A stretch of 64,000 bases of DNA, taken from positions 1,398 through 65,397 of the forward strand of contig JBAZEU010000001.1 in the NCBI GenBank assembly GCA_041653755.1, written 5' to 3'. Of this stretch, positions 3,683-64,000 are shown piece by piece; the stretch's first letter is position 1; each line of letters starts with the position of its first letter. A program made the translations under genes and the position numbers. The stretch comes from Minisyncoccota bacterium (GTDB lineage Bacteria; Patescibacteriota; Minisyncoccia; UBA6257; UBA9933). The notes under the pieces are model-generated. The model was not told where the DNA came from and searched no databases. It saw only the letters and a program-made list of their open reading frames with translations.

Positions 3683-3686
3683 ATTT

Positions 3687-34429: not shown

Positions 34430-34959
34430 TTTTCCAAAATGTTTCTTAAGCTTTTTAAAGCGCGATGTTGGATGATTCTTACGGCTGTTGGCGTTTTTTT
34501 AAGAGCCAAAGCGATCTCCTGCGGCGATAATTCTTCGATATAGCGCATAATAATCACGTCTTGCTGGTCTGGATTCAATTGCCTGATAGCGGTTCTTATT
34601 TTTTTAACTTCTTCATCTAAATCAATCTTATCTTCAACTTTTTTGTCTTCGCTGGCTATCTCTGGAACTTCTTCTATATCAAGTTCAATCTTTTGCGTTC
34701 GGTAAACATCAATCACTTGATTGCGGGCGATTCGGTAAAGCCAACTCGATAAAGGCAGTTTTTGATAAGTAAATCTTTCTATGCTTTGCCAGGCCTTTAG
34801 AAATACCTGGTGAGTGAGGTCTTCGGCCTCTTCTCTTTTGCTTAGCTTGATATAAATAAATCGGTAAATCTGGGGCTGATAGTGGCTGTAAAGCAGGCCA
34901 AATGCCTTCTCGTCGCCATGGATTGCCTTCTCTATTATATTTTGTTCATTATCTAACAT
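34426..34959 (-). CDS. RNA polymerase sigma factor, ECF (sigma-70 regions 2 and 4).
   Basis: Region 2 is YRFIYIKL...DLTHQVFLKAW. Region 4 HTH is LSPQEIALALKKTPTAVRIIQHRALKSLR. Confidence 0.85.
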   Translation of the reverse strand: MLDNEQNIIEKAIHGDEKAFGLLYSHYQPQIYRFIYIKLSKREEAEDLTHQVFLKAWQSIERFTYQKLPLSSWLYRIARNQVIDVYRTQKIELDIEEVPEIASEDKKVEDKIDLDEEVKKIRTAIRQLNPDQQDVIIMRYIEELSPQEIALALKKTPTAVRIIQHRALKSLRNILEK

Positions 34960-45216: not shown

Positions 45217-47841
45217 TTGCCTCAATTTAATCGTTTCACAATTAAAGCGCAGGAAGCATTAGCCAAAGCTCAAGAAATTGCGAGCTCATATAATCATGGG
45301 GAGCTTTCAGCCACCCATCTTTTAGCCGCTCTTATTTCTGACGGCCAATCAATCGTTACGCCGCTTTTAGTTAAATCGGGAATTGATGTTTCGAAACTTG
45401 ATTCTGCGACTAAAGAGATTTTAGAAAAACAGCCGAAAGTTTTTGCCACGGCCAATGTTTCTCAACTATACCTTTCTCAGGAAGTGATGAAGGTTTTAGA
45501 TGATGCTTCAAAAATTGCATCTCAATTGAAAGATGAATTCATTTCTTGTGAACATTTGGTGTTGGCAATTTTGAATACGCCGTCAACAGCCCAGAAATTA
45601 TTGGAAGAATTCGGTTTAAACAGAGAGACGGCATTGAGAACATTATCTTTATTAAGAGGCTCGATGAGAGTGACCGATGAAACGCCGGAAACAAAAATTC
45701 AAATTTTAGAAAAATACGCCATTAATTTGACCGAACAAGCCAAGCAAGGGAAGTTGGATCCTGTTATTGGCCGTGAGGACGAGCTTCGCAGAATTATTCA
45801 GGTTCTTTCCCGCCGGACAAAAAACAATCCGGTATTAATTGGTGAACCGGGCGTTGGCAAGACCGCCGTTGTTGAAGGGTTGGCTCAAAGAATAGTGTCC
45901 GGACAAGTGCCTGAAATTTTGAAAGGAAAAGAAATAGTGATGCTTGATTTAGGAGCTTTAATCGCCGGCACAAAATTCAGGGGTGAATTCGAGGATCGTC
46001 TGAAAGCGTTTATTAAAGAAATTCAGAATTCAGCCGGCCGGATTATTCTTTTTATTGATGAAATTCATATGATCGTTGGCGCCGGTGCGGCCGAAGGGGC
46101 GATTGACGCTTCCAATCTTTTAAAGCCACCATTGGCCAGAGGAGAATTAAGAGCGATTGGCGCCACTACTACCAGAGAATATCAGCGTTATATCGAAAAA
46201 GACGCGGCCCTTGAAAGAAGATTCCAGCCGGTTGTCGTTGAAGAGCCGGCTATCGAAGACAGCATTAATATTTTGCGCGGTCTGAAAGAAAAATATGAAC
46301 TCCATCATGGCGTTAAAATTTCCGATGAAGCGATGGTTGCGGCGGTTAATCTTTCGGTGCGCTACATTACCGATAGGTTTTTGCCGGACAAAGCGATTGA
46401 TTTAATTGATGAAGCGATGGCTGCCAGAAAAATTGAAGCGGAAAGCACGCCTGCTGGGATTGAAAAACTTCAAAAAGAAATCAGAAGCTTGGAGATTGAA
46501 AAATCAGCTTTAACAAGCGAAAAAAAGGAAAAGAATAAAAAACGGCTGAAAGCAATTGAAAAAGATTTAACTAAAATAAAAAAAGAAGAATCAGGCCTTC
46601 TTGCTGAATGGCGCGCTGAAAAAGGCGGATTGGAAAATTTGAATCAGCTTAGACAAAAAATAGAAAATCTTAAAAAAGAAGCTCAAGTAGCCGAAAGAGA
46701 AGCTGACTTAGATAAAGTTGCGAAAATTACTTACGGAGAATTGCCGCAAATGGAGAAGGATTATAACCTTTTAGAAAAGAAATATTTTTCCCAGAAAAAA
46801 GAAAGCAGGTTTGTTAAAGAAATAATTGATGAGGAAGATATCGCCGCCGTAGTTTCTCGTTGGACTGGCATTCCGGTTTCCAGAATGCTTGAATCGGAAA
46901 AAGAAAAATTCAGGAAGATTGAAGAAACCTTAAGGCATAGGGTGGTTGGCCAGGAAGAGGGTATAAAGGCCTTAGCTGACACTCTGCGGAGGGCCAGGGC
47001 GGGTTTATCCGATAAAGACAGGCCCCTTGGCTCATTTATGTTTCTGGGGCCTACTGGGGTGGGTAAAACCGAGTTAGCCAGGGCATTGGCAGAGTTTATG
47101 TTTAATGATGAAAAGTCGATAATCCGAGTTGATATGAGTGAATATATGGAACGTCATTCAACAGCCCGACTTATTGGTTCTCCGCCCGGGTACGTAGGAT
47201 ATGAAGAAGGGGGACAGTTGACAGAAGCAGTCAGACATCGGCCTTACAGCTTAATTCTTTTTGATGAAATCGAGAAAGCTAACCCGGAAGTTTTTAATAT
47301 CCTGCTTCAGGTTTTGGATAATGGCCGGCTGACTGACGGCAAAGGCAAAGTAGTCAATTTTAGAAATTCCATTATTATTTTGACTTCCAATGTTGGCAGC
47401 GAATATTTCAGAGAAATTTCTAAGATCGGTTTCGAGGTTGATAGCGAGAAGAAATATGAAGATCAGACCAAAACTTTTGAAGATCAGGTGTCGGAAACCC
47501 TGAAGAAAACTTTCAGGCCGGAGTTTCTCAACCGTTTGGACGAAATAATTATTTTTAATCCTTTGCGAAAGCCGGAAATCGAGAAAATCGTTGATCTCCA
47601 GCTTGAACTATTAAAGGAAAAGCTGAAAGAAAAAAATATTGTCGTTTCGGTTGATAATTCAGTGAAAAATTATATTATTGAAAATGGTTTCAGTCCTGAT
47701 TACGGCGCCAGGCCGATTAAGCGCTTAATCCAAAAAACGATTCTCGATGAATTGGCTGATCGTCTCATTAAGGGTGAATTAAAAAATGCTAAAAAGGTTA
47801 AAATTAGCTTCAAAAATTCCGCCATATCCGTTAATAGCTAA
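45217..47841 (+). CDS. clpB: ATP-dependent chaperone ClpB.
   Basis: N-domain, AAA1 (GEPGVGKTA), a long middle coiled coil, and AAA2 (GPTGVGKTE). 874 aa. Confidence 0.95.
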
Positions 47842-48508
47842 GACGCTTTTAATTTTTCTGCTTTTGATTTTGGCGAATTTCCATCAATCAAGTTTTTGGG
47901 CCATTTCCGCTTTTATTTTTTTTGCGGTACTTTTTTATTTTTGGCCTTTGCTCAATTCATCGGATTGGCTGGGATATTTTTTGATTTTTTTGACGGGTTC
48001 TTTAATAACAATACTCTCTTTAGATTTTTCAGTGATAGCCCTGATCGCCATTTTAGGATTAACTATCATCTTTTTTCTATTAATCGGTTCAAAGAATTTA
48101 AATTTAAGCGGTCCTCAATCAATTTTTTTGTTGAGAAGTTTTTTGTTCCTTTTGATTTTTTTCATGTTTTTTTCGGTAAACAAGGCAGAATTGTTTTGGC
48201 TGAAATATCTGGCTTTGATCGCGGCAATCTTCATCATATTCTTTGGATTGCTTAAAAATTACCCCAAGAAAAAACTCTATACCGTCGCCTTAACGTTTTT
48301 ATTGGTGCAAATAGTTTGGGCGATAGGATTATTGCCTATTGGCTTTATCAATCAGACGGCTCTGACTTTGGTTTTCATCCTGATTGTCGAGGAGTTGATC
48401 GTTTGCCATTTTAGCGGCGCATTTAATTATCAAAATATCGTGAAGAATGTTATGATTGTCGTTGTTTTAATGGTTTTAATTTTGGCTTTGTCAAAATGGA
48501 CAATCTAA
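47786..48508 (+). CDS. Polytopic membrane protein, hypothetical. Start uncertain because the ORF overlaps the clpB 3' end.
   Basis: About 7 hydrophobic helices. Overlaps the next gene's start by 13 nt. Confidence 0.35.
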   Translation: MLKRLKLASKIPPYPLIAKTLLIFLLLILANFHQSSFWAISAFIFFAVLFYFWPLLNSSDWLGYFLIFLTGSLITILSLDFSVIALIAILGLTIIFFLLIGSKNLNLSGPQSIFLLRSFLFLLIFFMFFSVNKAELFWLKYLALIAAIFIIFFGLLKNYPKKKLYTVALTFLLVQIVWAIGLLPIGFINQTALTLVFILIVEELIVCHFSGAFNYQNIVKNVMIVVVLMVLILALSKWTI

Positions 48509-50601
48509 AAATATCTAAAATTTTTCTAAAAATTTCTCAAGGATTTTTATACTTAACGCTTTTGACGCCAGTTTTGATATCACGTAATTTATTCTTCCCT
48601 TTCGTTTCTGGAAAGATAATTTTTTTCAAGATAATAGTTGAGCTTGCATTGTTGTTTTATCTGTTGGCGTTCCTGTCTAACCCCAAAAACGAAACGTTTG
48701 AATTTAAAAAGTTATTCAAGAACCCCATCTTTATCAGCGTTTGCGTTTTTACCTTATTGTTTTTCGCTTCAAGTTTTTGGGGGATAAACGCTAAATTTAG
48801 CTTATTCTCGAATTACGAAAGAGGAGAGGGCGGTTTTCAGATGCTTCATTATCTTATTTTCTTTTTCTTGTTGGTGTCTTTATTTAAAACGAAAAAGGAT
48901 TGGAAGAATCTTTTTATCGCCTCGATTCTTGTCTCGCTGGTAGTCTGTTCCTATGCATTAGGCCAGCTTGGAGTAGCAAAATGTCTTGATAGGGCCGGCA
49001 GCAATCAAACGGCTATTCAGGCCTGTCAGACCGGAACTTTTTTGTCGGCGAGCAGCCAAGTTTCCGGGACACTTGGTAATTCTTCTTATCTGGCAGTTTA
49101 TATTTTATTCACTTTATTCTTTATCGGTTATCTAATTCTTGGAGAGAAGAGAAAATGGTTAAAAATAATTTTAGGGATTGTGGCGATTTTTGAATTTTTG
49201 ATTTTACTTCAAACTCAAACCCGCGGAGTATTATTCGGCTTGGTTATAGCTACTATCATATGGTGCTTAGCTGCTGCTATTTTCTACCTTTTCAAAAACC
49301 GTAGTAAGAAAAGTTTGCTATTCGTTTTAGCTGTCCTCGGGCTATTAGCGGTTTTTATGCTTATTCTTTCTTTGATTGCCGTAAGCCATCCATCTTCTGT
49401 TGCTAGCCGGTTCATAAAAGTTTTTAGCCCATCTTATTTACTTAATTCATTAAAAGACCGTTTCTGGGCCTGGGGATCAGCTACGGCTTCTATTATGGAA
49501 AGGCCTTTTGGCTGGGGAGCTGAAAATTTCCCGCAGGCATTCGATAAATACTATAATCCTAAGCTTTTTGGCATTGAAAGTTGGTTTGACCGGGCGCACA
49601 ATGTTTACCTGGATTATGCCTTAGTCGGCGGGATTCCTCTCTTGATTGCTTTTTTGTCGATCTTTTACTTTTTCTACCAACGAATATTTAAGAGGTTTAA
49701 AGTCATATCGGAAGGAGTAGTCTTACAGTACGGCAATGAGAATTTAATTATTTTGTCTTCGGTATTTATTTTGATAACAACTTATTTAATTCAGGGGTTT
49801 GTTCTATTCGACGTAATTTCAACTTACATAGTTTTATTTTTATCCTTGGCGTTTTTTGTAAATTATTTTGATAAGCCGGAAGAAGAAAGAAAAAATTCAA
49901 CCGTTGTTCCTTGGTGGGGGAAGGGAGTTGTCTCTATTTTAATAATCTCGATATTCTTTGGTATTTATTGGCTAGGATTTTTGCCTTATCAGCGTTCCAG
50001 GATTTTGATTAACGCTATCCAAAAATCTCAAGCTGAATTCGTGGATGCGATTCGAACCCAAAAAAGCGATTTCAGCGAAACTTTTACTAAAATCAATTCT
50101 TATTTCGATCCGGCGCTAAATCATAAAGCGTTGGTCGGCGGCAATGAAACTATGATTGCTTTTTGTCAGTCGAATGAAAGCTTCTTAAATTATATTTTGC
50201 AGCAAAATACTTCGCCGACAAAAAATTCTTTTATTTCTTTGGTAAGCTATTTAGATCAAGAATCTGATAAAAAAGAAAAAGCAAACGAATTAATCGGAAC
50301 AAGGCCATTATTATATATAGGTTGGGTTGATTTTGCCGTTGGACGTGCTAGCGGTGAAACTTCATATTATCAAAAAGCAGCCGGATATTTCGATAAAGGA
50401 TTGAAAGAATCGCCGACCAGGATGGAATTCATTTATGTTAATCTTGAAGTTGCTTTGACTCAAAAAGATCAAAATACCGCCAAGTTAATGCTCAAAAAGG
50501 CTTTTGGTTTGAGGCCAGACCTTCAGGAAACGAACAAGTATTACAAAGGAGCTTACGAAGCAGAGTTTGGGACAAAGTTTGATGCCAATATCGTCGACTA
50601 A
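48496..50601 (+). CDS. O-antigen ligase / PglL-type oligosaccharyltransferase family (Wzy_C) membrane protein with a C-terminal TPR-like domain.
   Basis: Multi-TM N-terminus with LQTQTRGVLFG and periplasmic-loop RAHNVYLDYALVGG motifs. Helical repeats at the C-terminus. Confidence 0.55.
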   Translation: MDNLKISKIFLKISQGFLYLTLLTPVLISRNLFFPFVSGKIIFFKIIVELALLFYLLAFLSNPKNETFEFKKLFKNPIFISVCVFTLLFFASSFWGINAKFSLFSNYERGEGGFQMLHYLIFFFLLVSLFKTKKDWKNLFIASILVSLVVCSYALGQLGVAKCLDRAGSNQTAIQACQTGTFLSASSQVSGTLGNSSYLAVYILFTLFFIGYLILGEKRKWLKIILGIVAIFEFLILLQTQTRGVLFGLVIATIIWCLAAAIFYLFKNRSKKSLLFVLAVLGLLAVFMLILSLIAVSHPSSVASRFIKVFSPSYLLNSLKDRFWAWGSATASIMERPFGWGAENFPQAFDKYYNPKLFGIESWFDRAHNVYLDYALVGGIPLLIAFLSIFYFFYQRIFKRFKVISEGVVLQYGNENLIILSSVFILITTYLIQGFVLFDVISTYIVLFLSLAFFVNYFDKPEEERKNSTVVPWWGKGVVSILIISIFFGIYWLGFLPYQRSRILINAIQKSQAEFVDAIRTQKSDFSETFTKINSYFDPALNHKALVGGNETMIAFCQSNESFLNYILQQNTSPTKNSFISLVSYLDQESDKKEKANELIGTRPLLYIGWVDFAVGRASGETSYYQKAAGYFDKGLKESPTRMEFIYVNLEVALTQKDQNTAKLMLKKAFGLRPDLQETNKYYKGAYEAEFGTKFDANIVD

Positions 50602-50749
50602 AAAGTGAAACAAACCTAAAAACCCATCGTTTTATATGTATATAGGCAGAAAGACAGTCCCCGTCATCTCTTGCAAATCAGCGCAAAATCTTTTAAAATA
50701 AAAAATAATGGTTCAGAGTGAGGCTGAACTAAAAAATAATCGATTTCCA

Positions 50750-50925
50750 ATAATTTTTTGGTTATTGGTTTTACCTGCCTGCCGGTAGGCAGGAGTTGTA
50801 AGTTAGTTTATGCCTCGCTCAAAAAGCGAGTTTTTTATTTGTTTTGTCTCCGCCAACGGCGGAGGAACAAAACAAGAATCCGCCTAAGTTTTTCGAAAAT
50901 TTTGGCGGATCTTAACCCAAATGAA
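50750..50925 (+). promoter_or_regulatory. Cluster of four hairpins including a near-perfect 36-nt palindrome.
   Basis: cctgcct/aggcagg; ctcgc/gcgag followed by a T-run; ctccgcc/ggcggag; aatccgcctaagtttttcgaaaattttggcggatc. Confidence 0.35.
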
Positions 50926-51061
50926 ATCATGGTCCGAAAGGATCCTTGTTAATTATTAATGGTCGATCAAGGATAAAGAATTAGATCGATAAAATTAAAA
51001 TAAGGATTTTGTTAAATCCCGATTTATCAGGACTTAAAGAAATCCGATCACAATAATAAAA

Positions 51062-52975
51062 ATGAAATTAGGAATAAAAGTTTTTGCTGTAGTTTCAGCA
51101 TTAACAATGATCGCTCCTATTGCATTTGGTGCAACAACTGCTGAATTGCAAGCTCAAATCACAGCCCTTTTGGCTCAGATTCAAGCTTTACAAACTCAGT
51201 TATCTGCACAGGGTGGGCAAGTATCTTCAGCTACCACTTTTACCAGTAGCCTCACTATTGGTTCACAGGGAACTCAAGTTACTGCTTTGCAAAATCTTTT
51301 GATTTCCGCAAATAAAGGAACAAAAGCTCAAGCATTAGCCGCCGTTGGTGCAACAGGATACTTTGGTTCAATAACCAAAGCCGCTTTAGCCGAATATCAA
51401 GCCGCTGCGAATATTTCACCAGCAGTTGGATATTTTGGCCCAATCACAATGGCCTATGTTAATTCATTGGCCTCAACAGGCACAGGAACTGGAACCGGAA
51501 CAGGAACCGGAACAGGAACAACAGCAGCAGAAGGTTCATATACGGTAGCTTTGGCTGCCTCACCAGCGAATCAGGTTAATGCTGCATCAGGAGTTAACGT
51601 TCCAGTTTACGGAATTGAAGTCAGAGCCACTGGTTCTGATATCAAAATCGACAGATTGGATCTTCAGTTAGCAGTTACAAACACTGCAACAGCAGCTATT
51701 CAAAATCCAGCTTCGTTTATAACGAAGATTTCTATTTTGGATGGCTCAACAGTGTTGTCATCCCAGGTAATTAGCTCTGCTAATATCTATCAGGATGCCG
51801 CTCTTGCTTATTGGACTCGATTAACAGGTCTTAACTTCGTGGTTTCAAAGGATACTGCAAAAACTTTGACAGTAGCTATTGATACTGCGGGCGCAGTTGA
51901 TCAGGGTAGAACAATTGTTGTTAACGTTTATGGTGCCAATGGTATCAGAGGCGTTGACGGAATAGGATTAAATACCTATGCCGCTTTAGCAACAACCAGA
52001 ACACACACCTTTGTAACAGGAGGTGCCTCTGTTTTGACAGTTACCGCTGACCCAAATACCGTGTTAACAAACAACCATGTTGTTGATGGTACTACTGGAG
52101 CCACAGAGGTTACAGTAATGTCTTTCAACGCCAAAGCAACTGTTGACAATGCAGTGATCAGAACCATTAACTTGGTTCAGTCATATTCATCAGCAACAGC
52201 TCCATCAGCAGTTAAAATCTATGATGGTAGCACTTTGGTAGGTTCAGGAGTTGCTTCCGGTCTTGCCGCTGCAAACGCAACCGGTTCAACAGCCTTTACT
52301 AACTTGGCAATTTCCGTTCCGAAAGACACAACCAAAACACTTACAGTAAAGATCGACTATCCAGCTACATACGGCGCAACAGGCGGTGAAAACGCCACAG
52401 TCGGTGTCTGGAGAGCTGATGTTACTGCAAATGGAATTTGGTATCAGAGAGCAGATGGCGTAATAGCCGCTGCAACAATGTCTGGTGCTACAGTTTGGGG
52501 AAATACCCAATACACATTCCGCAGAGCTCCAAGCATCACCTTGGTTAGCGCTTCTGCCTCAAAGGTTGGCGGTGGCACAACAGCTTCAAGCAACCTTATA
52601 ACAACAATGGTTTTGAAGTTGAAAGCCCAAGGAGGAACTTTAGTTGCTCCAGATGGGATAGTAGCTTCAGCCGGAGCCAGCACAACCGTTGCAATTCTTA
52701 AAGCTTCAACAGGAGGCGAATTAGAAGCTGCATCTGGTACAAGTGCTTTTGCTGTTACGTTGAGCCCGAATAAGGCAACTTATGCTGACGGAGAAGAGGT
52801 CACAATGACAATTTCAGGAAATACTGCATATGAAGGTCCTACGACCAATGTCAGAACACCTGAATTCCTTCGCATGAGATTGGCTGATTTTTGGTGGAGA
52901 GTTGGAGACACTGATGCTCAAGTACAAAATTGGGGCATTACAGACTTCGTAACACCATACGTTAGCTTGCCGTAA
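51062..52975 (+). CDS. Secreted surface protein: signal peptide, Q/A-rich coiled coil, PG-binding-like domain, (TG)n linker and a T/A/S/V-rich beta domain.
   Basis: Its N-terminal 130 aa are paralogous to the 55820 ORF. The GSQGTQVTALQNLL...GYFGPIT module resembles a peptidoglycan-binding domain. Confidence 0.55.
   Translation: MKLGIKVFAVVSALTMIAPIAFGATTAELQAQITALLAQIQALQTQLSAQGGQVSSATTFTSSLTIGSQGTQVTALQNLLISANKGTKAQALAAVGATGYFGSITKAALAEYQAAANISPAVGYFGPITMAYVNSLASTGTGTGTGTGTGTGTTAAEGSYTVALAASPANQVNAASGVNVPVYGIEVRATGSDIKIDRLDLQLAVTNTATAAIQNPASFITKISILDGSTVLSSQVISSANIYQDAALAYWTRLTGLNFVVSKDTAKTLTVAIDTAGAVDQGRTIVVNVYGANGIRGVDGIGLNTYAALATTRTHTFVTGGASVLTVTADPNTVLTNNHVVDGTTGATEVTVMSFNAKATVDNAVIRTINLVQSYSSATAPSAVKIYDGSTLVGSGVASGLAAANATGSTAFTNLAISVPKDTTKTLTVKIDYPATYGATGGENATVGVWRADVTANGIWYQRADGVIAAATMSGATVWGNTQYTFRRAPSITLVSASASKVGGGTTASSNLITTMVLKLKAQGGTLVAPDGIVASAGASTTVAILKASTGGELEAASGTSAFAVTLSPNKATYADGEEVTMTISGNTAYEGPTTNVRTPEFLRMRLADFWWRVGDTDAQVQNWGITDFVTPYVSLP
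51478..51522 (+). repeat. In-frame hexanucleotide microsatellite (acagga/accgga)n encoding (TG)8.
   Basis: acaggcacaggaactggaaccggaacaggaaccggaacaggaaca. Confidence 0.6.
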
Positions 52976-53000
52976 TATCAGTTACGATTGTTATGAAAAA

Positions 53001-53028
53001 CCAAAAAAGCCCTTTCGGGCTTTTTTGG
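53001..53028. terminator. Terminator.
   Basis: ccaaaaaagccctttcgggcttttttgg. Confidence 0.6.
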
Positions 53029-53076
53029 TTTCAGAAGTTTTGACTTTAAAACTTTCAGCGTTTAAAATTATTAGGT

Positions 53077-55317
53077 ATGCCATTGATAAAAATTTCCGAA
53101 AGAATATTAAAGACGATTTTATTTTTAGTAATTTTCGCCACTCCTTTAATTTTTGCTAATTCATTGTATATGCCTTATGTTGCCGGCAAGGCGTATTTTT
53201 TCCGTTTGCTGATAGAACTCGCCTTGATCCCGTGGACAGTTCTTCTTTTCAAAAAACCAGAAAGCCGGCCGAACTTTAAAAATCTTTTGGTAATCGCTCT
53301 TCTGGCGATGGTGGTAGTTATGATAATTACCGCCTTCACCGGTGTTGATGTCCGCCGTTCTTTTTTCTCGAACAACGAACGTTCTGACGGAATAATCCAA
53401 TATATCCACTGGATTTTATATTTCTTGATGGCAATTTCCGTTTTTAAAACAAAAAAGGATTGGCAGATAGCTTTATCGCTTTTTAGCTCGACAGCGCTAA
53501 TAAATTGCATCTATGCGTTTGCGCACCGTACAAGTCAGTCGCAGCTTTTTGGGTTATTCGGTAATTCATCTTATTTAAGCGGCTTTCTAATTTTTGCGAT
53601 AGGTTTCTGCTTTTTATTTTTAACGAATTCTTTAAAGCTTTTTGCCAAAAAAATACCCGTTGCTTTTGTTCTTTTAGTTGCCGGTTTGATATTAGTTTTT
53701 TCTATTGCATTGGTTCAAGCTCAAACCCGCGGCGCTTATCTTGGTATATTTCTAGGTTTTATTCTTCTCGTGATTTTGGCTAATTTTTCTTTTTGGAAAA
53801 AATCTTTGCCTGACCGGCAGGCAGAAAAGAAAACAATCATTATTCTCGATGTGATTCTTTTTGTTGCGTTAATTTTCTTAGGACTAATTTTTATTTTTCA
53901 AAATTCCCAATTTGTGAAAAGTCATCCAATTATTAACCGGGTTGCCAACGTTGCTCATACTACTTCTGTCCAAGATCGTTTATCTGAATGGAACACGGCT
54001 ATTAAAGGATTTAAGGACAAGCCGATTTTGGGCTGGGGCCCGGAAAACTTCGATGTGGTGACTAACAAGTACTACAATTATCGCGTAGGTTTGTATGAGC
54101 CATGGTTCGACAGACCGCATAATCAGGCGTTTCAGTATTTAGCCGAAGGGGGAATAATTCTATTTGCCGCTTATCTTTTTCTTGTGGCAATGGTTCTCCG
54201 TTCAATCTTTAAGATTTACAGAAAAGAAAAAGTTCTCGGTTCTTTCTTTCTGGCTATCTATGTTGCTTATATTATTCAAAGCTTGATTTTGTTTGATGCT
54301 CTGCCGATGTTCTTGGGTCTATTTACTCTTCTTGCGCTCGTTTATTTCTTTTCTGAATCGTCACCCGCAATAAATGTTTCTTCTGGCTTGACGCGTCCTA
54401 AAAATAATTCCGTATTTTTCACCGGGATAGTAATTTTAACAATTCTAATTTTAGTTCTTATCAGATATACCGTTTTTATCCCTTTTACCGGCAACAAATT
54501 AATCATTAAAGCCTACGAAGATATTGGCTACGGAGAATACGAGAAATTAAATGTAGATTTCGATAAATTATTTTCGATTAGATCGCCGTATGTTTACGTC
54601 GATGCGAGAAGAGCAATTGGCTGGGAATTCCTAAAGAATGTTTTAGACAATCCAGAAATTACTGACGCGAACCGCGCGGCAATAACAGCTTCTTATCAGA
54701 AAATTGCTCCGGAGCTGGAAAATTGGATGAAGTATCGGCCAGTCGATCCACAGGTCTATTATGTTCTCGGCGCTTCTTACCGGCTTGGTTTCCAAAAATT
54801 AAACCAACAAGATGCATTGCCGAAAGCCGAAGTAGCACTTAAAAAATCCTTGAATTATTCAGCTAACAGAATTGAGTATATAGATGAACTTGGGCAAGTT
54901 CTTGTCTTAGAGAATAAGATAGAAGAATTCAACGAGTTAATGAAGAAATTCGTTTCTGGTGTAGATATTAACGATCCATATCGTTATTTATCTTTAGGCC
55001 ATGCTTATTTCATCCAGGGCAATTATACTTTGGCGATGGACGAATATACGAAAGCAAAAGATCTTGGTCAGAAGTTCTGGCAAAGCGATAGAGATTATTA
55101 CCGATACATACAAACAGCGGAACAGTTACAGGATTGGCCTAAGATTATTGAGATGACCCAAGAGTATTTGAAAAATCGCGGAGAAGACGTGAATAATATA
55201 TTTAATCTGGCGGTTGCGCAGCTTTATGCAGGAGACATAGAAAACGCAAGGATAAATTTCAATAAAGCGGTTCAGCTGAATCCTGATTTTGAACAGTATA
55301 GATCTTCTTTCCAGTAA
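53077..55317 (+). CDS. Second O-antigen ligase / PglL-like (Wzy_C) membrane protein with C-terminal TPR repeats.
   Basis: VQAQTRGAYLGIFLG and RPHNQAFQYLAEGG motifs, parallel to the 48496 ORF. The C-terminal 250 aa are TPR-like. Confidence 0.55.
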   Translation: MPLIKISERILKTILFLVIFATPLIFANSLYMPYVAGKAYFFRLLIELALIPWTVLLFKKPESRPNFKNLLVIALLAMVVVMIITAFTGVDVRRSFFSNNERSDGIIQYIHWILYFLMAISVFKTKKDWQIALSLFSSTALINCIYAFAHRTSQSQLFGLFGNSSYLSGFLIFAIGFCFLFLTNSLKLFAKKIPVAFVLLVAGLILVFSIALVQAQTRGAYLGIFLGFILLVILANFSFWKKSLPDRQAEKKTIIILDVILFVALIFLGLIFIFQNSQFVKSHPIINRVANVAHTTSVQDRLSEWNTAIKGFKDKPILGWGPENFDVVTNKYYNYRVGLYEPWFDRPHNQAFQYLAEGGIILFAAYLFLVAMVLRSIFKIYRKEKVLGSFFLAIYVAYIIQSLILFDALPMFLGLFTLLALVYFFSESSPAINVSSGLTRPKNNSVFFTGIVILTILILVLIRYTVFIPFTGNKLIIKAYEDIGYGEYEKLNVDFDKLFSIRSPYVYVDARRAIGWEFLKNVLDNPEITDANRAAITASYQKIAPELENWMKYRPVDPQVYYVLGASYRLGFQKLNQQDALPKAEVALKKSLNYSANRIEYIDELGQVLVLENKIEEFNELMKKFVSGVDINDPYRYLSLGHAYFIQGNYTLAMDEYTKAKDLGQKFWQSDRDYYRYIQTAEQLQDWPKIIEMTQEYLKNRGEDVNNIFNLAVAQLYAGDIENARINFNKAVQLNPDFEQYRSSFQ

Positions 55318-55324
55318 AAAGTTC

Positions 55325-55558
55325 TTATTGTTTTAAAAATCCTTCAATCTCTTCGCGGTTAAAACCAACAATGATATGGTCGTTTATGTCGATTACCGGC
55401 ACGTTTATTTTCCCGGTTTTTTGGATCATTTCTTCTCGGGCTTTCTCGTCAACCGTAACGTCAAATTCTTCATAATCCAATCCTTGTTCAGTAAAAAAAT
55501 CTTTTGCCATTTGGCAATAAGGACAAGCTGGAGTTGAATAAATTTTGATTTTTACCAT
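55325..55558 (-). CDS. Glutaredoxin.
   Basis: CPYC active site. 77 aa with a thioredoxin fold pattern. Confidence 0.8.
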   Translation of the reverse strand: MVKIKIYSTPACPYCQMAKDFFTEQGLDYEEFDVTVDEKAREEMIQKTGKINVPVIDINDHIIVGFNREEIEGFLKQ

Positions 55559-55559
55559 T

Positions 55560-55730
55560 TTATTTGTTTCCTGTTTTGGTTATTTTTCGAGAGAAGGAAA
55601 AAACAATTAAAATTATGCCTATTATTACCGCATTCCACGTGGCAATATTATATTGAAAAAATCCTAAGAGCCAGGGTGAAACAACAAGCCAGATGCCTAC
55701 TATTAAAATTGGCGTAAAAAATTTTGTCAT
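55560..55730 (-). CDS. Small 56-aa membrane protein with an SPW motif, absent from the ORF track.
   Basis: MTKFFTPILIVGIWLVVSPWLLGFF.... Its stop lies 2 nt before the glutaredoxin start. Confidence 0.3.
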   Translation of the reverse strand: MTKFFTPILIVGIWLVVSPWLLGFFQYNIATWNAVIIGIILIVFSFSRKITKTGNK

Positions 55731-55819
55731 ATGAGTATATTGTATCGAATTTTATTTGATATATCAAAATCCTTAGAGACCTCTTGCTTTCTTTTTTTGC
55801 GTATTGGATAATTAATTAA

Positions 55820-57874
55820 ATGTCTAAACTAGCAAAAGGTATTGCTGTTATTGGAGTGCTCAGTATGTTAGCTCCAACTGTTTTTGGTGTTTCGGTTAGT
55901 GACTTACAAGGTCAACTTGATGCTCTTTTAGTCCAACTTCACTCCTTACAGGCTCAATTAAGCGCGCTAAATACTTCTAATGTCTTCAATTTTAGCGTCA
56001 ACCTAACTTTTGGTTCAGTCGGGAGTCAGGTTTCTGCTCTTCAGAACTTTTTGGTGTCACAGAATGTTGGCCTGGCAGCTCTGGCTCTGGCTCGTCATGG
56101 AACAACCCAGAATTTTGGCAGTTTAACTAAAGCAGCCCTCATTGAATACCAGCAGTCAGCTGGCATTTCTCCAGCTATTGGATATTTTGGTCCCATTACC
56201 AGAAATTACATTAACTCTTTGAGGAATAACACCGACAACACGAATAACACGACTACCAATACTTCTGGTTTATCTTTTTCAACTTCAACAACTTCAAACG
56301 AATTAATTGGTTTAGTTCCAGTTGTTTCTACTAATTCAGCTATCAACGTATATGACACTTCAGCTATTTTAAGGGGAGAAACAGATTCTTCTGCTGGTCT
56401 GGTTGGTTTTGATTACGGTCTGACCTCCAGCTACGGTTCAGAGACCACTTCTACCGGCAATGGAATGTTTTCTTCGTATCTTTCTGGCTTATCAGGCAAT
56501 ACCACCTATCATTTCAGAGCCAAAGCTAAGAATTCAGCTGGCTGGGGGTATGGAGGTGATCAAACCTTAACTACTGCCACGGTCTTAAATTATTCAGTCC
56601 CGCAAGGAGACAATAGTGTGGTTATTTCTATCCCTACTTTAACCACAGATGCAGCTACAGCTTTAGCAGCGACCACTGCTACCTTAAATGGAACTATTAC
56701 TGATGAAGGAGGAGCTTCTTCTACGATAACTGGTTTTGATTACGGTCTGACAAATGCGTACGGCACTGAAGCCACTTCCACCTATGCCGGAGGAGCAGCT
56801 GCGTTCTCAAAAGATATTACGAGTTTAGCCAGCAATACCACCTACCATTTCAGATCTAAGGCTAAAAATTCTGCTGGTTGGGGTTATGGAGCGGATGCAA
56901 TATTAACTACCGCCTTAGCTCCTCCAACTGTGACCACTAACGCTGCCACCAGCGTAGCTACTTCTACCGCTACCTTCAATGGTTCTATCACTTCTGAAGG
57001 AGATGCTTCTTCCACTATTACTGGTTTTGATTACGGGTTAACAGACAGTTACGGTTCAGAAGCTACTTCTACTTACGCAGCTGGAGTAGGAGCATTTAAC
57101 AAAGCTATCACTGGTTTAACTTCTGGCGCTACTTATCATCTTAGAGCCAAATCCTACAATGCAGGAGGTTGGGGTTATGGGAGTGATGGAACGTTAACGA
57201 CAGCAGATCAATACGCCAAACTTCTACTGCATATGGACGGGGTTAATGAGTCTACTAGTTTCCCTGATTCTTCGTTTTATAATCATACGATGACGGCTCA
57301 AGGTGGCGTCCAAGTAGATACCAGCAATTACAAATTCCCGACTGGCGGATGCAATTTTGTATCCGATGGAAATTATCTTTCTTCGGCTACTAGCGAAGAT
57401 TGGCATTTTAGTACAGGTGATTTTACAATTGACTTCTGGGTGAAATTTAATTCGTTGGGTACGGAGAAAGCATTAGTTGTCATATTTGATGCGAATCTTC
57501 CTGCTCCAGTTACCTTGAATGTTGTCAGGACATCAGATAATAAATTAGCGGCTGCTATGAGTACTCCGAATCACGGGCCAGTAACCACTAATGCTGTATT
57601 TACTCAAACTGGAGTTTGGTATCATGTGGCTATTGAAAAAAGTGGAGGATCCACAAACCCTTTATTCTTTATCAATGGAGTGCAGCAAACAATTACTAGC
57701 AGCGCTTGGGGAGATGCTTTGTGGCCTGCAGATCTTCCGTGGAAAACTACCTTATATGTTGGTTATTCTCCTTGGCATGGCAGCGGGATAGACGGATATA
57801 TCGATGAGCTTAGAATCAGTAAAGGCATCGCTCGTTGGACTTCCAATTTTACCCCGCCAACAACTCCGTACTAA
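55820..57874 (+). CDS. Secreted surface protein: signal peptide, coiled coil, PG-binding-like domain, three ~100-aa repeats (YHFRAKAKNSAGWGYG), and a C-terminal LamG-like domain paralogous to the pilin-like protein.
   Basis: The repeats GFDYGLT..YG(S/T)E.TST......YHFR.KAKNSAGWGYG occur three times. The C-terminus is LLLHMDG...FTIDFW...RISKGIARWTSNFTPPTTPY. Confidence 0.65.
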   Translation: MSKLAKGIAVIGVLSMLAPTVFGVSVSDLQGQLDALLVQLHSLQAQLSALNTSNVFNFSVNLTFGSVGSQVSALQNFLVSQNVGLAALALARHGTTQNFGSLTKAALIEYQQSAGISPAIGYFGPITRNYINSLRNNTDNTNNTTTNTSGLSFSTSTTSNELIGLVPVVSTNSAINVYDTSAILRGETDSSAGLVGFDYGLTSSYGSETTSTGNGMFSSYLSGLSGNTTYHFRAKAKNSAGWGYGGDQTLTTATVLNYSVPQGDNSVVISIPTLTTDAATALAATTATLNGTITDEGGASSTITGFDYGLTNAYGTEATSTYAGGAAAFSKDITSLASNTTYHFRSKAKNSAGWGYGADAILTTALAPPTVTTNAATSVATSTATFNGSITSEGDASSTITGFDYGLTDSYGSEATSTYAAGVGAFNKAITGLTSGATYHLRAKSYNAGGWGYGSDGTLTTADQYAKLLLHMDGVNESTSFPDSSFYNHTMTAQGGVQVDTSNYKFPTGGCNFVSDGNYLSSATSEDWHFSTGDFTIDFWVKFNSLGTEKALVVIFDANLPAPVTLNVVRTSDNKLAAAMSTPNHGPVTTNAVFTQTGVWYHVAIEKSGGSTNPLFFINGVQQTITSSAWGDALWPADLPWKTTLYVGYSPWHGSGIDGYIDELRISKGIARWTSNFTPPTTPY

Positions 57875-57890: not shown

Positions 57891-57923
57891 AACTAAAAAC
57901 CCCCGATTTTGTCGGGGGCTTTT
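57891..57923. terminator. Bidirectional terminator.
   Basis: aaaaacccccgattttgtcgggggctttt. Confidence 0.6.
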
Positions 57924-58228: not shown

Positions 58229-58897
58229 TCAGTTATTCAAAAATTTATCAATAGAGGTTTTGAAAGCGTCATACGGTTGTTCGCCAACAATTGTTTCGGT
58301 GTTTATAAAGAAAGTTGGTGTTCCTTCCACTTTTGCTATTTGAGCATCATCAGACCATTGTTGGACTTTGTCTAAATATTTTCCCGCGGTATAGCAATCA
58401 GAGAATTTATTTTCGTCTAGCCCTAACTCCTTGGCGATTTTTTTCGTTGAGGGCAAAACATCATCTACGGTTTTAACGTTATCGGTTAGTTCCTGGGTAT
58501 GCTCGAAAAGATAATCGGAAAATTCCCAGTATTTGTTTTGTTCGCCAGCACAAAAAGTCGCTTGAGCCAATTCAGCCGGCAAAGAACGTAAGATAAATTT
58601 TACTTTTCCGGTATCAATGTAATCTTTTTTCAGTTGAGGAAAGGTTGTCTCGTAGAAACTTATACAATGACTGCAAAAATAACTTGAGTATTCGACGATA
58701 GTTACGGGCGCATCTTTACTCCCCAAGAAATTTTCACCGGTTACGTCTACATTTCTTGCGTCAAGAACGCTGGCTGTTTGATTCTGGTTGTTCGGATTAT
58801 TAATTTTTTTCAGATTGATTGTGTAATAAAAAATAGAACCGGAGATTAATACTGCGGCGGCTAAAATACTTATGATTAATAATTTTTGATTTTTCAT
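58229..58897 (-). CDS. DsbA-like thiol:disulfide oxidoreductase, membrane-anchored.
   Basis: N-terminal TM and the CSHC active site in a thioredoxin-fold context. Confidence 0.7.
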   Translation of the reverse strand: MKNQKLLIISILAAAVLISGSIFYYTINLKKINNPNNQNQTASVLDARNVDVTGENFLGSKDAPVTIVEYSSYFCSHCISFYETTFPQLKKDYIDTGKVKFILRSLPAELAQATFCAGEQNKYWEFSDYLFEHTQELTDNVKTVDDVLPSTKKIAKELGLDENKFSDCYTAGKYLDKVQQWSDDAQIAKVEGTPTFFINTETIVGEQPYDAFKTSIDKFLNN

Positions 58898-58926: not shown

Positions 58927-60393
58927 ATGTCAATCTTAGCCAAAGTAAAACATCTTCTTTTCAGAAATAGGACGGTTGGTCAGACCATTGCTAAGAACAC
59001 TTTTTGGCTAACTTTCGGAGAAATAACAGGCCGGATTTTAAGAACGGGCGTTGTTATTTATGCCGCCAGGGTTTTGGGTGCCGAGGGTTGGGGAGTGTTT
59101 TCTTATGCGATGAGCTTAGCTGCTCTTTTTACAATTTTTTCTGACGTTGGATTAAGCGCGGTTTTAATTCGTGAAGGAGCGAAAAATCCCGAAACCAGAG
59201 AAAAATATTTTGTTACGACTCTTGTGATAAAGTTATTTCTGATAGTTTTTAGTTTCATTGTTGTTATGCTTGGCGCTCCGCACTTTACAAAAATACCGCT
59301 TTCAACCAATCTTTTGCTTTTTATAGCCCTTCTTTTATCATTTGATTCTCTAAGGGGCTTTGGCGTTTCGCTTTTTAGGGCGGTAGAAAAAATGGAAATG
59401 GAGGCTTTTTCTAATATTCTCACACAGGGTGTGATTTTAATTGCTGGGATTTTAATACTTATTTTTTCTCCTTCTCCAGAACATTTAGCTATTACTTACG
59501 CAATAGGCAGTGCAGCGGGGTTGCTATTGACGGTTATTTCTATCTGGCCCTATTTTAAGAAATTTTGGCAACATTTTGATAAAAATTTACTTAAGCCGAT
59601 TTTTAAGGCTGCTTGGCCTTTTGGTGTAGCTGGTCTTATGGGCGCGGTTATGATAAACACCGATACGATTATTATTGGCTGGCTTAAAACAGCGGCAGAT
59701 GTCGGGTATTATTCGGCTGCTCAGAAACCAATACTTTTGTTATATATGCTTCCTTCATTGATTGCTGGCGGATTTTTCCCGGTTTTGGCAAAACTTGCGA
59801 ATAAAGACAATGAAAGATTTAGGTACACTCTGGAAAGAGGATTAGCTTTTGTCTTTCTTTTGGCCATACCTTTTACAGTTGGAATTATTTTAACTTCTGG
59901 TCAGATAATTCATCTTCTTTTCGGAAACGCATATTTTAATTTACCAACCATATTAACGCTTCAGTTTTTAGCCATAACATTGATTACTAATTTCCCAATG
60001 AATTTATTGGTTAATTCTGTTTTTGCGTATGATAGACAAAAAGATTTAATTATTTTTTGGACAATTGGAGCGATTGGCAACGCTGTTTTCGATTTGCTTT
60101 TGATTCCGATTTGGGGAATCGCCGGCGCAGCATTAGCCACGGTTATTATGCAGGCTATTAGTAATGGTTTAATTTGGTGGAAGATGAAAAAAATCAATAA
60201 TTTTTCGGTTTTAAAATATTTTCCGAAAATTATTATTGCGACAATCGTAATGACGATCGTCGTCATTCTTTCGAACCGTTTGAACATGCCGATTTTGGTG
60301 ACTGTACCCGTTGCGGCTATTATCTATCTTTTAACTTTAGTGCTTCTTAAAGAAAAGATGATTCTTCAAATGAAGACCTTGCTTAAAACATGA
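58927..60393 (+). CDS. Polysaccharide biosynthesis protein / Wzx-type flippase (MOP superfamily).
   Basis: About 12-14 TM helices across 488 aa, with a typical N-terminal KNT.W...GE..GR motif. Confidence 0.75.
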   Translation: MSILAKVKHLLFRNRTVGQTIAKNTFWLTFGEITGRILRTGVVIYAARVLGAEGWGVFSYAMSLAALFTIFSDVGLSAVLIREGAKNPETREKYFVTTLVIKLFLIVFSFIVVMLGAPHFTKIPLSTNLLLFIALLLSFDSLRGFGVSLFRAVEKMEMEAFSNILTQGVILIAGILILIFSPSPEHLAITYAIGSAAGLLLTVISIWPYFKKFWQHFDKNLLKPIFKAAWPFGVAGLMGAVMINTDTIIIGWLKTAADVGYYSAAQKPILLLYMLPSLIAGGFFPVLAKLANKDNERFRYTLERGLAFVFLLAIPFTVGIILTSGQIIHLLFGNAYFNLPTILTLQFLAITLITNFPMNLLVNSVFAYDRQKDLIIFWTIGAIGNAVFDLLLIPIWGIAGAALATVIMQAISNGLIWWKMKKINNFSVLKYFPKIIIATIVMTIVVILSNRLNMPILVTVPVAAIIYLLTLVLLKEKMILQMKTLLKT

Positions 60394-61001
60394 TTACTAT
60401 TATCGATTACAAAACAGGGAATATCGGGTCGATACTTAACATGCTTAAAAAAATTGGTGTAGAGGCCAATATTTCTTCCGACATTAAAGATATTAAAAAA
60501 TCTGACAAATTGATTCTTCCTGGCGTCGGTGCGTTTAACACCGGTATGGAGAATCTTCAACAGCTGGGCTTAATCTCGCTTCTTAACGACGAAGTTATAA
60601 ATCATAAAAAACCGATTTTAGGGCTTTGTCTCGGGATGCAATTACTCGCTCGAAAAAGCGAAGAGGGAAATCTTTTTGGTTTGTCATGGCTTGATGCCGA
60701 AGTGGTAAAATTCAAATTTGATGATAAAAATTTAAAAATTCCTCATATGGGCTGGAATACGATAATTCCAAAGAGACAATCATCGCTTTTAACAGGTCTA
60801 GATTCAGATTATAGATTTTATTTTGTCCACTCATATCATTTCGAATGCAGAGATTCAAAAGATATACTTGCCAATACTTTTTATGGCTATGAATTTCCGT
60901 CAATCGTTCAAAAAGGGAATATTTATGGAGTTCAATTCCATCCTGAAAAAAGCCATAAATTCGGCATGAAATTATTAAAAAATTTTGCGGAGTTTTGCTA
61001 A
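60390..61001 (+). CDS. Glutamine amidotransferase, HisH paralogue (WbuY-like).
   Basis: The catalytic triad context is GLCLGMQLL and HSYHF. Overlaps the flippase stop. Confidence 0.8.
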   Translation: MITIIDYKTGNIGSILNMLKKIGVEANISSDIKDIKKSDKLILPGVGAFNTGMENLQQLGLISLLNDEVINHKKPILGLCLGMQLLARKSEEGNLFGLSWLDAEVVKFKFDDKNLKIPHMGWNTIIPKRQSSLLTGLDSDYRFYFVHSYHFECRDSKDILANTFYGYEFPSIVQKGNIYGVQFHPEKSHKFGMKLLKNFAEFC

Positions 61002-62905: not shown

Positions 62906-64000
62906 ATGAAATTATGCTTTCTGATAAATATTAACGACAATCATTGTAGGAAATGGGTGAATTATTTTGCCGAAAAAGGCCACGAAATTCATGTGATTTC
63001 AGAATCGTCGGATTATATAAACGAGATCAAAAAACCAAATATTAAAATACATTTGCTTAAAAGTTATCGCGTTAAAGCTTTAAGCATAATTTTGAATATA
63101 TCTGCTGCCAGAAGATTAATAAAGGAGATAAATCCTGATATTCTACATGCGCTTTATGCCGGTGTAAGCGGTATGCTCGGGTCTTTAAGTGATTTTCATC
63201 CTTTCCTACTAACTACTTTCGGATCAGATATTCTTATTAATTCGAAAGCAAAGTTATTAAAACCTTCCATAAAGTTCATGTTAAATAAGGCCGATTTGAT
63301 AACTTGTAATGGGCAAATGCTTTTCGATGAATTATTAAAGCTTGGAATAAAAACTCAAAAAATAAGATATATTTATTGGGGGACTGATACTAAAAAATTT
63401 AGCCCTGGACCAAGGAAAAAAGAGATTAGAGAAGAACTTCATGTATTTGATTCCCCCATGATAATAAGCTTAAGGAACTTTGAACCCGTATATGACATTG
63501 AAACTTTAATCAAAGCCGTACCAATCGTTTTACAGTCTAGCCCCGATGTAAAATTTGTAATAGCTGGAGACGGTTCTTTGAAAAATAAACTTGTTGATAT
63601 GGCAAAAGACTTGGGTGTTATCGGAAATATCAGATTTGTCGGTTGGCTTCAATACGAAAAACTTCCAGATTATTTAAGGTCTGCTGATGTCTATGTTTCT
63701 ACCTCTTTGTCAGATGGCGATTTAGCGCAAAGCACCCAGCAAGCGATGGCATGCAATGTGCCGATAGTAACTAACGATTTAATAGTTAATACAAACAGAA
63801 TAAATGACGGGGAAAACGGTTTTATCTTTCCGACAAAAGATTATCGTCTTTTAGCGGAAAAAATTATAATATTATTGAAAAATAATGATCTTAGGGTTAA
63901 AATGGGTGAGGCTGGAAGAAGGACAATTGATGAAAATCTTAATTATTATAAAAATATGGAAGAAGCAGAAAATCTCTATAACGAATTGAATAGAAATAAA
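62906..64000 (+). CDS. Glycosyltransferase family 4, 3'-truncated by the window end.
   Basis: The ORF is open to the window end. GT4 C-terminal motif E..G....EAMACNVPIV present. Absent from the ORF track because no stop falls inside the window. Confidence 0.65.
   Translation, partial: MKLCFLININDNHCRKWVNYFAEKGHEIHVISESSDYINEIKKPNIKIHLLKSYRVKALSIILNISAARRLIKEINPDILHALYAGVSGMLGSLSDFHPFLLTTFGSDILINSKAKLLKPSIKFMLNKADLITCNGQMLFDELLKLGIKTQKIRYIYWGTDTKKFSPGPRKKEIREELHVFDSPMIISLRNFEPVYDIETLIKAVPIVLQSSPDVKFVIAGDGSLKNKLVDMAKDLGVIGNIRFVGWLQYEKLPDYLRSADVYVSTSLSDGDLAQSTQQAMACNVPIVTNDLIVNTNRINDGENGFIFPTKDYRLLAEKIIILLKNNDLRVKMGEAGRRTIDENLNYYKNMEEAENLYNELNRNK

Follow-up and report, generated by a model that had tools for sequence, protein, structure and literature searches.

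What would an enzyme annotated as an O-antigen ligase do in a bacterium whose relatives are reported to have a single membrane? The question is raised by a 64-kb stretch of DNA, here called the window, from the metagenome-assembled genome (MAG) of a Candidatus Paceibacterota bacterium, a member of the candidate phyla radiation (CPR, or Patescibacteria). In this low-GC window (~39% GC), two Wzy_C-family membrane enzymes, Wzy1 and Wzy2, alternate with two secreted proteins, ST1 and ST2, and a protein identical to Wzy2, encoded on a contig of 194,951 bp that also carries Wzy1, has the NCBI annotation 'O-antigen ligase family protein'. All four open reading frames (ORFs) singled out in a preliminary description of this DNA are present at exactly the coordinates it gave, on the plus strand:

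48496..50601, plus strand: Wzy1, a Wzy_C-family membrane enzyme of 701 residues with a divergent C-terminal domain that resembles tetratricopeptide repeats (TPR) and is predicted to lie outside the cell
51062..52975, plus strand: ST1, a secreted protein of 637 residues, the proposed acceptor substrate
53077..55317, plus strand: Wzy2, a Wzy_C + TPR enzyme of 746 residues with 13 transmembrane (TM) helices, a proposed O-oligosaccharyltransferase (O-OTase)
55820..57874, plus strand: ST2, a secreted protein of 684 residues, a possible second acceptor

CPR cells have been reported to be monoderm with a distinct S-layer, and some annotations of lipopolysaccharide (LPS) type in CPR genomes are also mentioned (PMC6146748). 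Because of the reported monoderm envelope and S-layer, a classical LPS O-antigen role is unlikely; domain scans of the window proteins found no lpx or waa genes within the 64 kb. The reading that we favour, at a probability of about 0.5, is that the two Wzy_C+TPR enzymes are O-OTases similar to WsfB and PglL, working in a monoderm CPR bacterium on a substrate encoded next door.

The two Wzy_C enzymes

Both proteins contain the Wzy_C-type domain ascribed to them, with matches to Pfam Wzy_C (PF04932) above the gathering cut-off of 31.7 bits in each: 51.1 bits (E 1.7e-13, residues 230-387) in Wzy1 and 80.2 bits (E 1.8e-22, residues 205-367) in Wzy2. They are paralogues, with 29% identity across ~470 residues of the membrane domain. 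Wzy1 has an orthologue of 42% identity at the related locus L001, and the close relatives of both enzymes are all found in Patescibacteria/CPR MAGs. The motifs quoted earlier are likewise found, QTQTRGV and RAHNVYLDYALVGG in Wzy1 and AQTRGAY and RPHNQAFQYLAEGG in Wzy2. Very few alignment columns are invariant among 26 diverse homologues; they include R102, R218, R301, P316, G319, G321, D345, H348 and D407, and the triad R218, R301 and H348 is invariant both in this alignment and in another of 17 sequences. Wzy1 keeps the same Arg/Arg/His triad (alignment A2). Six of the invariant residues lie in one segment:

53896..54123, plus strand: large loop of Wzy2 outside the cell in the predicted topology (residues 274-349, 76 residues; R301, P316, G319, G321, D345 and H348 invariant)

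Searches of the PDB with single sequences gave TPR matches only for Wzy2 and none for Wzy1. Because a Foldseek search against the PDB with the full-length AlphaFold2 (AF2) model of Wzy2 (mean confidence, pLDDT, 90.1) also returned TPR proteins only, and with them no information on the membrane part, a HMMER sequence profile of the TM domain was used for the alignments to known structures. The top PDB match of this profile is 9rmk, 'Oligosaccharyltransferase' (610 residues; E 7.6e-12, profile positions 129-402), followed by the WaaL ligase of Cupriavidus metallidurans (CmWaaL), 7tpg (E 2.4e-10, profile positions 204-381). In these alignments, Wzy2 R218/R301/H348 fall opposite R191/R265/H313 of CmWaaL and R224/R298/H349 of 9rmk. 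The corresponding residues R215/R288/H338 are important for activity in Escherichia coli WaaL, and are conserved in PglL as R224/R298/H349 (PMC3643930). The assignment of the Arg/His loop motifs to the WaaL/PglL type was therefore correct, since they align to functional residues of both enzymes.

The alignment to 9rmk also takes in two stretches that bear on PglL, a GNxSYL loop opposite PglL Q178/N180 and a GxG motif opposite G316/G318. Residues described as specific to PglL are Q178, N180, G316, G318, H400, E404 and P406 (PMC3643930). The Wzy2 equivalents of PglL P313/G316/G318 are P316/G319/G321, all invariant; N163, S165 and Q401 stand in place of Q178, N180 and H400; and E404/P406 lie beyond the end of the HMMER alignment, with D407 and P410 of Wzy2 close by. 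On these comparisons, Wzy1 and Wzy2 belong to the ligase superfamily of WaaL and PglL, their donor-binding site is intact, and they lean slightly to the O-OTase side.

The C-terminal domain adds a second line of evidence:

54538..55311, plus strand: C-terminal TPR array of Wzy2 (residues 488-745), predicted outside the cell, modelled by AF2 as helical hairpins

Canonical TPRs (Pfam TPR_1/2/8) are found in Wzy2 only, at residues ~630-740. A family profile widens the match to residues ~530-737, and the array has Foldseek and hidden Markov model (HMM) matches to CTPR and OGT TPR domains. Wzy1 has no Pfam TPR match; its residues ~530-680 are nevertheless homologous to Wzy2 488-636 (hhalign probability 98%, E 7.6e-14), and its C-terminal domain thus corresponds to the membrane-proximal half of the Wzy2 repeats, in a shortened and divergent form. 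A TPR-like domain had been proposed for both proteins; this holds in full for Wzy2, and for Wzy1 the term is acceptable for what is a divergent relative. The AF2 model of Wzy2 contains 13 TM helices, with the N-terminus predicted inside and the C-terminus outside; together with the 76-residue loop, this agrees with the topology of the Wzy_C superfamily, at least 12 TM helices and a large loop before TM10. Lys and Arg on the short loops are biased to the inner side (11 versus 4 on the outer), which puts both the catalytic loops and the entire TPR array outside the cell, on the same face as the active site. If the model is right, an outward protein-interaction domain beside the active site is what one would expect of an enzyme with a protein acceptor.

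The same architecture is known from characterized O-OTases. A C-terminal TPR on a Wzy_C protein has been described for WsfB, the S-layer O-OTase of Paenibacillus alvei, and for PglL, and in Geobacillus the TPR sits on a separate neighbouring protein, WsaA, alongside WsaB (PMC2943079). Compared by this published description, WsfB and the WsaB+WsaA pair of Geobacillus stearothermophilus join Wzy_C to TPR as Wzy2 does. They also work in monoderm hosts on a donor linked to undecaprenyl diphosphate (Und-PP) and delivered to the outer membrane face, and are encoded with a glycan cluster near an abundant secreted surface protein. They differ in that the present locus belongs to the CPR/Patescibacteria and has several paralogues, and in their acceptor, an S-layer protein of the SLH type there and a candidate anchored by PG_binding_1 and built of coiled-coil and immunoglobulin (Ig)-like parts here; G. 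stearothermophilus moreover uses an ABC transporter, whereas transport here would depend on Wzx. The PglL (Neisseria) and PglS class, with 9rmk, resembles Wzy2 in having an extra C-terminal domain after a 12-TM core and in the triad, whose equivalents are invariant. It differs in that the C-terminal domain of Wzy2 is a long TPR array (~250 residues), that PglL_A and Wzy_C_2 were not detected in Wzy1 or Wzy2, and that the host here would lack a periplasm bounded by an outer membrane.

Candidate acceptors and conserved gene linkage

ST1 consists of a signal peptide, a coiled coil (residues 26-50, predicted as a helix), a peptidoglycan-binding PG_binding_1 domain (~60-137, from Pfam), a disordered (TG)n linker and three Ig-like beta-sandwich domains. 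The AF2 model has a pLDDT of 84, falling below 50 at residues 140-153 in the linker, and its beta-sandwich domains resemble the Ig-like stalks of the Gram-positive adhesins PrgB, SpaP and AspA (Foldseek). The ST1 family has at least 258 members of ~620-680 residues. ST2 begins with the same arrangement of signal peptide, coiled coil and PG-binding module, and continues with an N/T-rich linker (~135-160), three fibronectin type III (FN3)-like repeats and a C-terminal laminin G (LamG) domain (Pfam Laminin_G_3, fn3 and a weak PG_binding_1 match). The two proteins share 55% identity over residues 6-136, a common N-terminal module of ~135 residues.

Ser plus Thr make up 22.3% of ST1 and 25.1% of ST2, against a window median of 11.1% (standard deviation 4.2%). 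A third protein, also put forward as S/T-rich, indeed reaches 25.1%:

6709-8241: protein resembling type IV pilins (N_methyl motif), G/S/T-rich in its middle part and ending in a LamG domain

ST1 and ST2 had been pictured as dominated by S/T/A tracts. The richness in Ser and Thr stands; the tracts do not, as these residues are spread through the predicted beta-sandwich domains and low complexity is confined to the linkers. ST1 and ST2 are thus folded surface proteins rich in Ser and Thr, in which the low-complexity linkers are short. The LamG domains of ST2 and the pilin-like protein share 37% identity and have near-identical tails, RISKGIARWTSNFTPPT(A/T)PY, which suggests a lectin-like head common to a pilus-borne protein and a wall-anchored stalk.

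The linker of ST1 is the candidate acceptor site:

51470..51526, plus strand: ST1 linker (residues 137-155, ASTGTGTGTGTGTGTGTTA, (TG)n), candidate region for O-glycosylation

Among 35 aligned members of the ST1 family, the stretch that joins the PG-binding domain to the first Ig-like domain is 22-66 residues long, hypervariable, and rich in Thr, Gly, Pro and Ser in every one (35/35), with an average composition of 28% Thr, 20% Gly, 10% Pro, 9% Ala and 9% Ser. Flexible segments rich in Ser, Thr, Ala and Pro are the usual targets of PglL-type enzymes, and O-OTases of the PglL/PglS class favour acceptor stretches that are flexible and contain much Ser, Ala and Pro.

In several ST1 homologues this Thr/Gly/Pro linker is interrupted by small Cys-rich inserts, such as repeated copies of CGNGTCDVGETHTSCAADCP in P0126 and of CPNGMTLASNCT in P0143 (alignment A3 of the ST1 family, at the columns of ST1 residues 134-158). 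They may be disulfide-stabilized mini-domains. Beside this we note a gene for a DsbA-like thioredoxin in the window, on the minus strand 3' of ST2 (58229-58897).

The pairing of ST1 with a Wzy_C enzyme is conserved. Of 12 independent loci, 11 have an ST1-type gene either adjacent to a Wzy_C(+TPR) gene or separated from it by a single gene, in at least four flanking contexts. At every near-clade locus with enough flanking sequence (Wzy2 identity of 38-65%), the ST1 orthologue ends 114-227 bp upstream of the Wzy2 orthologue on the same strand (L001, L002, L004/L006, L007, L008, L009 and L010). The reverse search took as its starting points ST1 homologues of 33-38% identity found on long contigs, and a Wzy_C(+TPR) gene lay zero or one gene away in three of four cases: it starts within 100 bp on the 3' side of P0127 and P0155, and is one gene distant from P0126. 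The enzymes at these divergent loci are only 24-28% identical to Wzy1 or Wzy2. Over the loci as a whole, the flanks vary between ClpB, sigma70/DUF5667, NusA/ClpP and RNase HII/NYN. Both the varied flanks and the divergence of the enzymes imply that the pair has been retained through extensive divergence and rearrangement. Known O-OTases (TfpO, TfpM, PglS and many PglL) are often encoded beside their substrates (PMC12645811; PMC3643930).

Within the window, pattern scans point to the following signals:

50814-50830: terminator-like hairpin between Wzy1 and ST1
53040-53068: promoter-like site inside the gap between ST1 and Wzy2
57900..57918, plus strand: intrinsic-terminator-like hairpin ending the ST2 unit (8 pairs, 6 of them G-C, then a T-run; the best-scoring in the scan)

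No terminator-like site was listed in the 101-bp gap between ST1 and Wzy2. These scans, as weak evidence, are consistent with co-expression of ST1 and Wzy2. Scans with Rfam and for tRNA revealed nothing relevant in the region of the enzymes and surface proteins.

Only the ST1-Wzy pairing is conserved; elsewhere the slot of ST2 is taken by other PG-binding proteins. In five near-clade loci, the gene 3' of the Wzy2 orthologue has a C-terminal copy of the PG-binding module. A second conserved family, of ~570-600 residues, carries its coiled-coil/PG-binding module at the C-terminus rather than the N-terminus, and its members lie after or beside a Wzy_C+TPR gene, in the position of ST2:

L002 12261-13958: member of the second family
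L004 12274-13995: member of the second family
L087 7113-8906: member of the second family

At L002, L004 and L087, genes with Sigma70_r2/r4 and DUF5667 domains stand immediately 5' of the ST1-Wzy pair, unlike in the window.

A proposed pathway and its alternatives

Beyond the DsbA-like gene 3' of ST2, the window continues with genes for glycan synthesis and export. The flippase, acetamidino-sugar module and glycosyltransferase that had been recognized at 58.9-64 kb are all confirmed by Pfam and NCBIfam:

58927..60393, plus strand: Wzx/MOP-family flippase (Pfam matches to Polysacc_synt, E 5e-38, and to MurJ; in NCBIfam, matches to MOP flippase and, weakly, to O-glycosylation Wzx)
60390-61001, plus strand: HisH-like glutaminase (TIGR01855, 246 bits)
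60985-61761, plus strand: WbuZ/HisF2 (NF038364, 364 bits, cut-off 310)
61771-62904, plus strand: WbuX N-acetyl-sugar amidotransferase (TIGR03573, 306 bits, cut-off 203)
62906..64000, plus strand: GT4 glycosyltransferase that runs past the window end, the first gene of a longer sugar cluster (Pfam Glycos_transf_1, Glyco_trans_4_2)

On a near-identical contig, L086, the cluster goes on with an epimerase, a methyltransferase, a glycosyltransferase-like gene, a UDP-GlcNAc 2-epimerase, a UDP-sugar dehydrogenase and a WbpB-like oxidoreductase. The gene set of the window and L086 is that of a predicted pathway of the diacetamido/acetamidino-uronic-acid type.

We infer a protein acceptor, and with it the residues modified and the nature of the glycan, along the following lines. 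The downstream cluster would build an Und-PP-linked oligosaccharide rich in diacetamido/acetamidino uronic-acid sugars, and Wzx would flip it to the outer membrane face. There Wzy2, and probably also Wzy1 with a different specificity, would act as O-OTases of the WaaL/PglL type, binding the Und-PP donor at the outward Arg/Arg/His site, and the outward C-terminal TPR array would hold or recruit freshly secreted acceptor protein. The glycan would then be transferred en bloc to Ser/Thr (or Tyr). The likeliest sites would be in the disordered Thr/Gly/Pro-rich linker of ST1-type proteins, between the peptidoglycan-binding module and the Ig-like ectodomains; ST2-type proteins are possible further substrates.

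The preliminary description had proposed a dedicated machinery for surface-protein glycosylation. The triad, the top match to 9rmk, the outward TPR array and the ST1-Wzy synteny speak for it, but the enzymes are not strictly of the PglL/PilO class and conservation extends to the ST1 pairing only. As regards class, the presence of PglL_A and Wzy_C_2 alongside Wzy_C is the published criterion by which PglL/PglS-class O-OTases are recognized (PMC12645811). Neither domain was detected by Pfam in Wzy1 or Wzy2 at E <= 0.01, so by this criterion the two are not PglL-class, and the window has no pilin gene adjacent to them.

Several observations besides this missing pair of domains weigh against protein glycosylation. 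The WaaL match is nearly as good as the O-OTase match (E 2.4e-10 and 7.6e-12), and for this reason sequence leaves the choice of acceptor undecided. TPR domains scaffold polysaccharide export machines too. No Wzy_C gene occurs within 5 kb of the ST1 homologue P0150. Linkage to ST1 does not extend to the entire Wzy_C+TPR family: in a wider set of 80 loci (25-33% identity), an ST1-like neighbour occurs in only 13-15. The most frequent neighbours at these 80 loci (L006-L085) are SecA (21 loci), MurB (18) and an NAD-dependent epimerase (18), with Wzx (9) and a phosphoglycosyl transferase (8) recurring too, so that SecA and MurB are commoner than ST1-like genes; many Wzy_C+TPR copies lie in a conserved neighbourhood of secretion and cell-wall housekeeping genes. 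A wall-binding protein adjoining wall-glycan genes is also expected if the glycan anchors the protein and does not modify it. Finally, in the literature searched, we found no paper tying Patescibacteria/CPR to O-OTases or glycoproteins.

The strongest alternative, which we consider unlikely but well ahead of the others discussed below, is that Wzy1 and Wzy2 are ligases in the manner of TacL or WaaL, moving the Und-PP-linked glycan to a glycolipid or other envelope acceptor to give a lipoglycan or a secondary cell-wall polymer. ST1 and ST2, wall-associated because of their peptidoglycan-binding domains, would on this account be linked merely as proteins that sit in or bind the polymer layer. 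The Arg/Arg/His triad serves lipid-acceptor ligases as well, and WaaL 7tpg shares with Wzy2 its fold family, the aligned triad and an Und-PP-linked donor. A precedent in a monoderm is TacL of Streptococcus pneumoniae, a Wzy_C protein that joins teichoic acid to a glycolipid, transferring an Und-PP-linked polymer to its final acceptor at the outer face (PMC5727136). The distant family members that adjoin MurB, SecA, flippases and phosphoglycosyl transferases, and not ST1-like genes, would also fit. Size and architecture argue otherwise: TacL (397 residues, with a glycolipid acceptor and no adjacent secreted substrate protein) and WaaL (~400-420 residues, with a lipid A-core acceptor, which sets it further apart from a host in the reportedly monoderm CPR) both lack a C-terminal TPR domain (PMC5727136 for TacL). 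Patescibacteria also have short Wzy_C-only paralogues of ~450-500 residues, and these suit a ligase role better than Wzy1 or Wzy2. The large outward TPR array is a protein-interaction module common to WsfB and PglL, and the survival of the ST1-Wzy pair through changes of flank and down to 24-28% enzyme identity is tighter than mere co-membership of an envelope would lead one to expect.

We give little credence to a classical Wzx/Wzy pathway, in which one paralogue, for example Wzy1, would polymerize repeat units of a capsule or exopolysaccharide-like glycan and the other would ligate the finished chain. Pfam Wzy_C covers polymerases and ligases alike, a Wzx flippase and a sugar cluster of the repeat-unit type are adjacent, and the paralogues stand side by side in L001, as a polymerase/ligase pair might. 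Against this, both paralogues have the full Arg/Arg/His triad of ligases and OTases together with an outward helical-repeat domain, and no Wzz/PCP chain-length regulator was recognized in the window or among the recurrent neighbours. The scheme of one polymerase and one ligase is also a misfit for tandem arrays of three to four Wzy_C+TPR genes (L042 and L075).

Slightly less probable still is that the linkage has no enzymatic meaning, the genes having stayed together simply because Paceibacteria inherited this cell-envelope neighbourhood from a common ancestor. The strictest synteny does fall inside one clade (Wzy2 identity >=38%), and L002 and L004 also have the upstream sigma70/DUF5667 genes in common. 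The same pair is, however, seen in at least four flanking contexts and with enzymes of only 24-28% identity, and an HMM of the coiled-coil/PG-binding module finds just two ORFs in the window, both flanking Wzy_C genes. A pilin system can be set aside: TfpO/PilO and TfpM share the Wzy_C core and a cognate substrate encoded immediately beside the enzyme (PMC12645811), but what they modify is a type IV pilin, at the C-terminus or close to it, whereas the adjacent genes here are PG_binding/Ig-like and more than 40 kb separate the enzymes from the sole N_methyl pilin-like gene (6709-8241).

Surroundings and implications

The region is preceded by housekeeping genes for RecA, FtsK, an HtrA-like protease and ClpB. 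Between clpB and Wzy1 lies a further ORF:

47786-48508: polytopic membrane protein of 240 residues, sharing 56 bp with the 3' end of clpB and 13 bp with the start of Wzy1

It has no Pfam or NCBIfam matches. A homologue (34% identity) follows clpB in L001, the only locus with one, and the ORF appears to go with ClpB, not with the Wzy genes. Proteins of ~230-290 residues without Pfam matches, encoded upstream of ST1-like genes at L088, L089 and L090, were considered as a conserved third component and rejected, being unrelated to this ORF.

A minus-strand trio at 33137-34959, ~16 kb from the ST1-Wzy pair, resembles the sigma-factor genes that adjoin the pair at L002, L004 and L087; it was judged by eye only:

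34426-34959, minus strand: ECF-type sigma factor-like gene
33962-34429, minus strand: small membrane protein, maybe an anti-sigma factor
33137-33922, minus strand: secreted coiled-coil protein

Near the start of the window, positions 863-6560 form an anti-phage defence island:

863-2056: type II DNA methyltransferase
2041-2889: TdeIII-type restriction endonuclease
2873-3682: Hypoth_Ymh / PD-Lambda-3_B-like HEPN protein
3687-6560: Ppl-like protein of 957 residues with a PHP-type N-terminus and an ATPase

Beyond the window, relatives with the Wzy_C+TPR architecture number at least 477 among species-representative Patescibacteria genomes. Tandem arrays of two to four full-length paralogues occur at L075 (3306-12786), L042 (7971-14664) and L016 (5740-10232), an arrangement that points to diversified donor or acceptor specificity. 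A broader proposal, which we hold more tentatively and at somewhat less than an even chance, is that the Wzy_C+TPR proteins are the O-OTases of a glycosylation system found throughout the Patescibacteria, with peptidoglycan-anchored coiled-coil/Ig-like proteins as substrates, modified on their hypervariable Thr/Gly/Pro linkers. No glycoprotein system would have been defined in CPR bacteria before it. It would probably influence both the surface layer of these episymbionts and their attachment to hosts, and the expansion of paralogues would diversify glycan or acceptor specificity.

The enzyme family, the Wzy_C+TPR architecture, a monoderm precedent in WsfB and the encoding of O-OTases beside their substrates are all already established, and under either view of the acceptor the finding extends known biology and introduces no new principle. 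Its interest lies in the organisms. CPR/Patescibacteria are ultra-small, mostly uncultured and attached to host cells, so that their surface is the interface with the host, and its chemistry is essentially unknown. Glycosylation of the adjacent wall-anchored Ig-like proteins, if confirmed, would explain 'O-antigen ligase' annotations in a monoderm lineage and would provide a concrete enzyme-substrate pair, Wzy2 with ST1 or the ST1 linker. New O-OTases with a TPR acceptor-binding domain might also serve in bioconjugation. Were the enzymes instead ligases for lipids or wall polymers, they would still define a pathway for an envelope glycopolymer in CPR bacteria.

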